NCBI GenBank assembly: GCA_002633005.1
Contig: NMRA01000310.1
Span: forward strand, 4,624-68,623
Origin: Phoronis australis
Lineage: Eukaryota; Animalia; Phoronida
Length of the DNA stretch: 64,000 nucleotides
Reading direction: 5' to 3'
Notes under the pieces: model-generated
Database searches by the model: none
What the model saw: the letters and a program-made list of their open reading frames with translations, nothing else
What the model was told of the DNA's origin: nothing
Shown: piece after piece, positions 46,601 through 49,600 of the stretch
Numbering within the stretch: position 1 is the first letter of the stretch
Layout: each line of letters opens with the position of its first letter
Program-made: the position numbers and the translations under genes

Positions 46601-49600
46601 AACCCCTTCCTTAGAAATATACGGTGGTATTGTTGCCAGTCCAACTTGGAAAGCCCGCAAGCAAAATTTACCTATCGTTTGTTATTTACCCCAAAACTGA
46701 AGTTTCTAGATGAGTGGAATACAAACAGGTGTCGTCGAAGTCTGCTGGATTATGTCTCCATAGAATGTACTACGGTAATAGCGAGGTGATCAATTAGACC
46801 TTAGCCACAACTGAATCTAACCTGGGCATCACTAACACAGTGCATTTGCATACTTCGACAACCAAACTGCAGAAGTACAGTACAAGCCTATACCTATGTA
46901 ATGAAGACACTTGGCCTCACAGGAGGCGCTACACACTGAACTACAAGACCATTCAATTGTTGAATAGCTAAAAAGCCAGGAAATGGTGTAATATGAAATC
47001 ACAAGTGTTAACTATGATAGACTCTACAAGAAGATATGACAGGAAGTCAGTAATCAATTAACATAACACCGATTTGCATATTACAACATAGTGACTAGGG
47101 AAATACAACAGATCTAACAATGCTTGGCAGTGTGTTATTGATCTCATCTAGTGCTGCACTAAAGAGTGGTTTGATGAAGCTATATGCACTCACACTCACA
47201 CACACACACAAACACACTTGTACTCCAGAAAAACAATAGGGGTCACTACTTGCAGGGTTAATGAACACTCTCACTCTAAGCTTGGACCGATAAATCGTTG
47301 ACGTCTGCGTCGATGGAATTCGCAGTCTGTTGACAAGTGCCCCACAAATCAATTTCACATGATTTCTGATTCAAGCGACAACAAAGATTATTAAATCTTT
47401 TTTGAACACAACGGCTAAAGCGTTCTTGTGAGAGCCGAGTGCAGTTGTGGTCTTAAGCGCAGCCAGACAACTTAGCAATCCAAGCTTGGGATGTCACTAC
47501 AGGTCAATCGGCAAACCTTGGGTCCAAACGCTAGTAACTTGAGTATACACTCGATGGTGAAGACGATTGTGAAGGTGATGTTGAGATACATAAGAATTTT
47601 GTCAAACTGCTTGTCAATATCGCTCTTGGTTGGAGAATAGTACTGGAGAGCGGAGGAAAGAAAAAGAAATACATAATGAGCTGAATCAGCCTAGCTTAAA
47701 GTGGGCGTAACATAATGTCATGTCATGTCAAGCACATTGTCGACTGAAACGTAAAATGTTAACAAAGCTGGTTGCTGTAATACGGAAATCAATGAAATGT
47801 GAAGACTGAGACACGTTGATGAAATGTGAAAGCGTTACCCACAATGTGAAACATGTTCATGGAAAGTGAAATATCTTGCAGGAACACGATGTGTTAGCGC
47901 ATTGTGAAACAAAAACAGATGGAATCCGAAGCATGTCAATGGATAGCAAAATATCTGAATGACAAGTGAAAATGTGAATGAAATGTGACACATGGTGTAA
48001 AACCGATGCAAAACATGTTGACGAAATGTGAAACACGTCGGCATTACTGTGCAGTACAGGTCAATGGGGTGTCATCGCAACGTTTGAGATGCGGCAACTG
48101 AACACGAGAAACACTGTAGCGTCAGCCTTGAGTGATTCACAACACCATCGCGCCGCACCTTTACCCCAAATGCCACCAGTTTCACCAAGCACTCGACTGC
48201 GAAGATGGTTGTAAAGCCTACATTGAGGTCCATCAGAACCTCCTCAAACAGTTTGTGCCCCTCTGTCTCCTCTTTAACGTAGTACTGGCAGCCAAGGAAA
48301 ACAAAACTAAATATGAGAAGAAACTGATCGCAAAACAAAGACACCACTCATCGCTAACTGTCTATGTCATGCTGAGCGAGGCTGAGTGCTCTGTGGCTCC
48401 AACCGTCTGCTATAGTCAGTCACGTGACACAGGTAGACCTCCGGCAGAAGAGGACCAAGGACATTTCTGATGTGTCTGCCTTCAATACCACAAACGGTTC
48501 TCTTAGACAAGACAGAAATGGCTCTTTGTCTTCTTGACAAAATAGTACCCCTGTTTACCATAAGGTGGCGACACAAGTTCCTGATCAAAGTCATCAGAGT
48601 CTTGCGCAAGTTTCACTGGTTGACCAAAACAGTGACGGTGACTGCCAACAGAGCAGCCAGCCAGTCGCATTATATTTAACAGCAGGCACCTTCACTCCCA
48701 ACGCAATCAGTTTCAGTAGGCATTCAATGCAGAAAACTGCTACTAAAACCCAGTTAGTATATTTAAGCCCTTCGTGATATCGACGGTCAAACTCGGTCGC
48801 TTCACTCTCTTTGTAGTAGTACTGTGGGAGTAAAAGAGAGAGAAAACATTTGCTATAAGATCAAGATTGATGACGAAGTCTGTGGAGGAAGACAAGTGAT
48901 AGGCCTTGTAAAAATCACTTGCAAAACGTTTTCCTGTCTGAAAGGAGAAAAACAAATTATTCATTAATCGAAAACCTCCACGCCACCAGTTTGCTAAGTC
49001 GCTACCATCAGCGTGACGATTAACCAATCAAAGCTCAACAACAGAACCTGCGAAGCCGCCTAGCACATCCAGCAGGGAGGGGGCAGCACTAGCACACCAC
49101 ACACGACAGACAGCGCTCTCTGGTGGCATGCGATGAAGATCTAGCAAAGGCGTGTTTTGGGCCAGCTGTTACATTGAATATAGAACAGTTGCAGCCTCAG
49201 CTTACCCTCACTCCAAAACCGATAATCTTCAAAATGCACTCAATCGTGAAGAGGATGGTGAAGGATATATTTAGGTTTTGCAGCACGTCCTTATATTCCG
49301 GCGACATTCCATAATACTGAGGAACAAACATAATACATTTAGTTCATTCAACTATGTGGAATTTCACACTCGCACAGAGTAACCCACCTTTGCACAAAGT
49401 GGGTATTTGGCAGAAGAATTGGAAAAGGATCCAATCTGTTTTAAGCTCGTTTAACACATGGTTGTGTTTTATATTTGAAATTTTGCTGGTTTTGTTAAGT
49501 CTTTTTTTTTGAAAGCCAGGGGTGCACTTCAGAACCTAGCGAAAGAACAAGAACATGCAAGACACGAGACTTTACTAGTGCATGTTAGCAAAATGGCCGC

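Follow-up and report, generated by a model that had tools for sequence, protein, structure and literature searches.

A four-exon array for the IVS2 segment in the Cav2 gene of Phoronis australis: an expanded form of a known alternative site

The Cav2 gene and its IVS2 exons

The window analyzed here, a stretch of 64,000 nucleotides from Phoronis australis, harbors a Cav2 alpha-1 gene whose exons from IIIS4 to the stop codon span approximately 56160 to 16626. An earlier note on this DNA, made from the letters alone, had assigned the gene to Cav2, and the named top matches agree, being type A alpha-1, N-type or P/Q-type channels. Fifteen constant blocks, which include the pore glutamates of domains III and IV and the IQ region, are 70–79% identical to bilaterian Cav2 (79% in Owenia, 77–78% in two nemerteans, 74–76% in molluscs). 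In a tree of these blocks, built without a Cav1 outgroup, the window gene falls into a starred spiralian group and outside of the starred mollusc group. Most invertebrates possess a single Cav2 gene, which drives fast synaptic release. The exons of the domain IV voltage sensor are arranged as follows.

52178..52342, minus strand: constitutive exon encoding the last part of the III-IV linker plus IVS1 (55 aa, donor GTAAG)
49206..49316, minus strand: exon A, short IVS1-S2 loop and S2 (37 aa, donor GTAAG)
48690..48821, minus strand: exon B (44 aa, donor GTGCC), the most diverged of the four
48159..48284, minus strand: exon C (42 aa, donor GTGCG)
47517..47642, minus strand: exon D (42 aa, donor GTTTG)
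41898..41981, minus strand: constitutive IVS3 exon (28 aa), whose acceptor takes A and whose donor joins the IVS4 exon
35700..35819, minus strand: IVS4 exon, the start of which matches loose read ends at 41898 (16 reads, one RNA run)

On re-reading of the window, the coordinates of A–D and their placement between the IVS1 and IVS3 exons proved exact. Each of the four is preceded by CAG, begins with YY, is followed by GT, lies in phase 0-0, has a length that is a multiple of three and is open in frame 0. The GT donor ascribed to every member is thus present, and the consensus GTAAG belongs to A alone among them. The S2 helices of A–D share an Asn, a Phe, a Glu and a Lys in register in the alignment, of which the note had described the Phe, the Glu and the Lys. 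The Phe and the Glu are part of the charge-transfer centre, as set out in the cited part of PMC13661669.

The four exons are 40–51% identical to one another at the amino acid level and 53–63% at the DNA level, and the introns between them are unrelated. The loop ahead of the S2 Asn varies in length (15–22 residues) and in charge and is most acidic in C, with two basic and six acidic residues. In exon B the Phe-Thr that S2 usually contains has been lost, and its branch is long. Pyrimidine tracts are good in both middle exons (17/19 in B, 15/19 in C). A profile of A–D detected no fifth copy in any reading frame of the window (next match E = 1), and a broader profile of 84 IVS2 peptides again returned exactly four IVS2 exons. 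No full duplicate of any other constant exon was found in the window when the 15 blocks were tested.

Tandem clusters of mutually exclusive exons consist of neighbouring homologous exons of similar length and phase, of which one member enters each transcript and each is used somewhere. The anatomy of such a cluster is found in A–D, which are adjacent, homologous, similar in length and equal in phase, with canonical splice sites and open frames.

Several other features surround the array. The acceptor of the IIIS4-S5/IIIS5 exon and its first 19–21 codons are copied in a tandem repeat with a 67-bp unit at 54891-55205 (minus strand; 4.7 copies, 91% match). Additional AG acceptors therefore stand 67, 134 and 201 nt upstream of the true one, and splicing to any of these three would yield a dead transcript, because a stop codon follows in each case. 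After the IVS3 exon, at 41500-41850, there is an extended low-complexity sequence of Ala/Thr/Val-like character with 15-nt repeats. Assembly gaps are present at 12577 and 52587-52708 (123 N in total), and the larger one adjoins a CT repeat upstream of IVS1.

Selection on the four exons

The strong divergence of four open exons had been read as a sign of selection rather than decay, and this reading is borne out by the codon-position pattern, pN/pS, the open frames and neutral simulation. Over the last 30 codons, identity in all six pairs is highest at position 2 (20–27 of 30) and lowest at position 3 (8–15 of 30). Across the same codons pN lies at 0.24–0.38 against a pS of 0.57–0.91; for B and C alone the values are 0.33 and 0.91. 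Against a profile built without them, A–D still score 38–75 bits. In four simulations of 2000 neutrally mutated copies each, with the nucleotide identity of the exons and the entire divergence placed on one branch, none of the 2000 copies scored as high as B or C against the profile, and 76–82% of the copies gained a stop codon. A–D have therefore diverged under protein-level constraint across most of their history, which is compatible with a recent loss of use.

Splicing in RNA reads

Three raw-read RNA runs labelled with this species, 18–19% of each, and one contig run were mapped to 41860-50200, and a junction was listed when three reads from two starts supported it. The sole listed joint leads from the donor of A to the acceptor of IVS3 and skips B–D (4 + 9 + 2 = 15 reads). 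Of the junction pattern predicted for the array, the A to IVS3 joint and the absence of A-B, B-C and C-D joints were thus recovered; B, C and D were not seen joined to IVS3 at this low depth. Neither were A-B, A-C or A-D joints listed alongside the 15 A-IVS3 reads. In the three runs no joint of B, C or D was listed, at a depth at which a variant expressed at the level of A is essentially never missed and one at a fifth of that level is missed in 42–69%. Read depth over B–D amounts to 0–1.3, level with the intron background. A is the dominant form in the three RNA samples, and B–D are neither confirmed nor excluded by them. The blank for B and C is not specific, because D is missing from the joints as well, although its counterparts are used in other animals.

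Relatives of the individual exons

Exon A is closest to the first-position exons of other animals (72% to the first exon of Pinctada). Exon D is closest to an exon of Lineus (62%) and resembles the last-position type of other spiralians. The best identities of B and C in the tree set are 45% and 49%. A joint B and C profile run against 1.84 billion representatives returned no close match to either exon, and none of 144 new representatives exceeded 23 identical residues. In the metagenome locus L003, an A-type exon with a GTAAG donor is followed by a D-type exon with a GTTTG donor and then by IVS3. A GTTTG donor was found on the last exon in four of the six paired loci examined.

The exon tree is mostly unresolved, with 7 of 54 branches starred; its rows for the first exon of L003, for L007 and for L076 are a few residues short. 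It groups A with the first-type exons of Owenia, Tubulanus, squid and Macrostomum (88/95, unstarred) and leaves D unplaced over 42 columns. A–D formed one group in none of 200 bootstrap trees. A recent fourfold copying of one exon is therefore unlikely, while the tree is too weak to give the order of duplication.

IVS2 exons in other animals

Database records show a two-way choice at this site in bivalves. Among the bivalve records of four groups that cover the site, 58 of 58 contain one exon or the other and never both: 14 long and 3 short in Mytilus (n = 17), 8 and 5 of two forms in Crassostrea gigas/angulata (n = 13 covering the site), 13 and 2 in Mercenaria (n = 15) and 11 and 2 in Ruditapes (n = 13). 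A single form was found in Crassostrea virginica (6 records), Owenia (4) and squid (2). In Lineus the D-like exon is the annotated form in all 15 records listed from a cluster of 33. An IVS2 pair is recorded in the Cav2 of a flatworm, and the nematode records and Nematostella have one form.

A Cav2 IVS2 pair is also present in insects, a spider and an ostracod (P0349, P0327, P0318, P0228, P0186, P0176, P0557); the literature search found no paper on such a pair in arthropods. Aphids, Adelges and Daktulosphaira have two forms, with 13 and 2 of 15 each. The records of Onthophagus (n = 15) comprise four of one form, nine of the other and two with both in frame, and those of Oedothorax that cover the site (n = 5) one, one and three with both in frame. 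These double models could reflect either leaky exclusivity or faulty gene prediction. In a set of 369 proteins whose interval was measurable, leaving aside eight vertebrate rows that are pattern artefacts and one garbled Priapulus model, two exons are strung together in six (Nucella, Pinctada, Macrostomum, a spider, a beetle and a lanternfly). An ostracod gene model likewise has two IVS2 exons together. These records suggest that the alternative site, noted once in molluscs, is common to protostomes and that several gene models misrepresent it by stringing the exons together.

The older model of Lingula anatina (P0251, residues 1145-1269) contains three IVS2 exons in series, which would mean a three-way array; in the newer model the first alone is retained. 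The middle Lingula exon ends in GVK, as B and C do, which is a hint only.

Of 80 metagenome loci, many of which are near copies and hence non-independent, 42 reach an IVS2-type exon, 11 have two exons and none has three. Among the 16 that reach IVS3, a pair is present in two and a single exon in 14. Some of the IVS3-reaching loci carry the first type only (L007, which groups with first exons at 97/94) and some the last type only (L057, 98/93). Single-type loci include L007, L057, L058 and L076, and both types occur in L003 and L042. Such a split would fit duplicated Cav2 genes that divided the two exons between them.

Probable exclusive use and its possible mechanisms

Exclusive use is expected because two S2 helices in series would invert the membrane topology, and an analogue behaves accordingly: in Cav1.2, the channel that includes both exons 21 and 22 (the IIIS2 pair) is described as non-conducting, retained and dominant-negative, and this form is present in heart (PMC5059693, in the part cited). 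Mutually exclusive use, as proposed for A–D in the earlier note, stands as the likely mode in view of the A-IVS3 joint, the 58 of 58 bivalve records and the Cav1.2 analogy; what did not emerge is the splicing-in of B, C and D.

Three mechanisms of exclusion look ruled out. The inner introns measure 384, 405 and 516 nt and their AG-free zones 20–36 nt, which argues against a steric block. All introns are of the GT-AG type and lack a U12-type donor, so U2/U12 incompatibility seems not to apply. Frameshift decay seems not to apply either, as every exon length is a multiple of three and double inclusion would escape it.

In docking-site/selector clusters of the Dscam and 14-3-3 type, selectors next to the individual exons compete for pairing with one docking site in an intron, and these elements are conserved between species. 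When the inner introns of the array were paired with the flanking introns, eight of the nine pairings were at shuffle level and no common docking site was found. The best pairing, approximately 48410-48450 with 51420-51460, was reached in 1 of 40 shuffles, which falls short of significance once nine tests are allowed for. Compared with L003, the introns showed no conservation above shuffles, and an inverted-repeat scan gave nothing specific. An identical 11-nt motif is found at 48052-48068, 94 nt after the C donor, and at 47495-47511, 9 nt after the D donor (3 of 500 shuffles, one of 12 comparisons). It has no pairing partner better than random 26-mers and is possibly a protein-binding site. 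The intron between IVS1 and A contains a short repeat that looks tRNA-derived, at approximately 51440-51540; the sequence that pairs best with the B-C intron lies in its 3′ end.

Proposed explanation and alternatives

The array probably consists of four working alternatives. Each of the four intact, homologous exons supplies an outer loop and an S2 helix for sensor IV; A is joined directly to IVS3, and B–D are likely rarer and used one at a time, so that four forms of the channel would arise, with predicted differences in gating. A would be the default form, since it alone has a consensus donor, and the weak donors of B–D would probably be opened by cell-type-specific splicing proteins. The variants are predicted to tune the outer face of sensor IV and not to turn it off, because loop length and charge vary around an invariant set of S2 residues (Asn, Phe, Glu and Lys). 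Differences in gating are known to arise from outer countercharges (PMC13661669, in the part cited). An old two-exon switch, with an A-type exon first and a D-type exon last, was probably the starting point of the array, which would then have been enlarged by middle copies.

Alternatively, only A and D may work, as a pair like that of molluscs, with B and C being old extras that are seldom or never spliced and are beginning to decay. This is unlikely, yet it would account for the weak donors and long branches of B and C, their lack of close relatives, the 11 of 80 metagenome loci with two exons beside none with three and the lack of reads joining B or C. However, between B and C synonymous sites are saturated and non-synonymous change is low, both frames are open with intact splice sites and good pyrimidine tracts, a middle exon is present in Lingula, and D is just as unseen in the reads despite the use of its counterparts elsewhere. 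Harder still to sustain is the view that A alone is used and that B–D are dead copies or an assembly artefact. A is indeed the only exon seen spliced, but the strong codon-level constraint and the D-like exon annotated in 15 of 15 listed Lineus records make this view very improbable, and a collapsed or doubled haplotype is contradicted by copies of 53–63% DNA identity with unrelated introns.

Exclusivity might also be leaky, such that some transcripts carry two exons in frame and yield a non-conducting channel as a brake on channel number; the dominant-negative e21+22 form of Cav1.2 is a precedent (PMC5059693, in the part cited). Exon lengths that are all multiples of three suit this idea, as do the double-exon gene models of beetle, spider, lanternfly and ostracod. 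Strung-together exons are, however, a usual gene-prediction error for such clusters, no A-B, A-C or A-D joint was listed against 15 A-IVS3 reads, and the bivalve records contained one exon in 58 of 58 cases. We regard leakiness of this kind as improbable.

The preferred reading of four alternatives used one at a time can be extended, tentatively, to an ancient protostome IVS2 switch that was expanded to three or four exons in some worms. One Cav2 gene might then supply four domain IV sensors to different neuron types, with splicing in the role that the three Cav2 genes play in vertebrates, and later gene copies might have split the exons. With their invariant charge-transfer residues and variable outer ones, A–D offer a natural series for asking how voltage dependence is set by the outer face of sensor IV.

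Comparison with known systems

The four-domain sodium channel of Liposcelis offers a match in number. Its exons 27A–D at IIIS3-S4 likewise give four either-or voltage-sensor forms, of which one is dominant and the rest are rare and tissue-limited (PMC3805903, in the part cited). The differences lie in the channel, the S3-S4 position and the exon structure: only three exons are separate, as 27C lies inside 27B, and the passage cited has 27B and 27D one residue apart (PMC3805903), whereas A–D are four separate exons of 40–51% identity.

Exons 21 and 22 of Cav1.2 resemble the array in that they duplicate part of the S1-S2 loop together with S2, are mutually exclusive and stay in frame if both are included; unlike it, they are a pair in domain III of an L-type channel (PMC5059693, in the part cited). 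In Drosophila, the single invertebrate Cav2, cacophony, is likewise diversified by mutually exclusive exons (IS4A/B and I-IIA/B), and the IS4 choice alters the activation voltage and the localisation at active zones (PMC11828482, PMC12370356). These sites are different ones and hold pairs only. As the cited portions of both papers state two exclusive sites only, no IVS2 pair appears to be annotated in the fly (PMC11828482, PMC12370356).

The site itself is known from molluscs. The novelty that the earlier note implied for the IVS2 site does not hold, since Dunn et al. (2018) already printed a mutually exclusive IVS2 exon pair in molluscan Cav2, for Aplysia (splice site 4), Crassostrea and Octopus (PMC5818475, in the part cited). 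The Aplysia pair is PCR-confirmed in the supplement (PMC5818475). It lies in the same gene with the same boundaries, after LMMK and before NYF..W, and comprises one short-loop and one long-loop exon in an obligate either-or choice (PMC5818475). Position and boundaries of A–D thus match the molluscan pair and the number of members does not: the pair has two (PMC5818475), and the window array has four, in a non-molluscan spiralian, with B–D known from sequence alone. A three- or four-way IVS2 array was not found in the published full texts covered by the search, which lay outside most subscription journals and bioRxiv supplements. The four-way array is a new, expanded version of an alternative site known as a pair and not a new mechanism.
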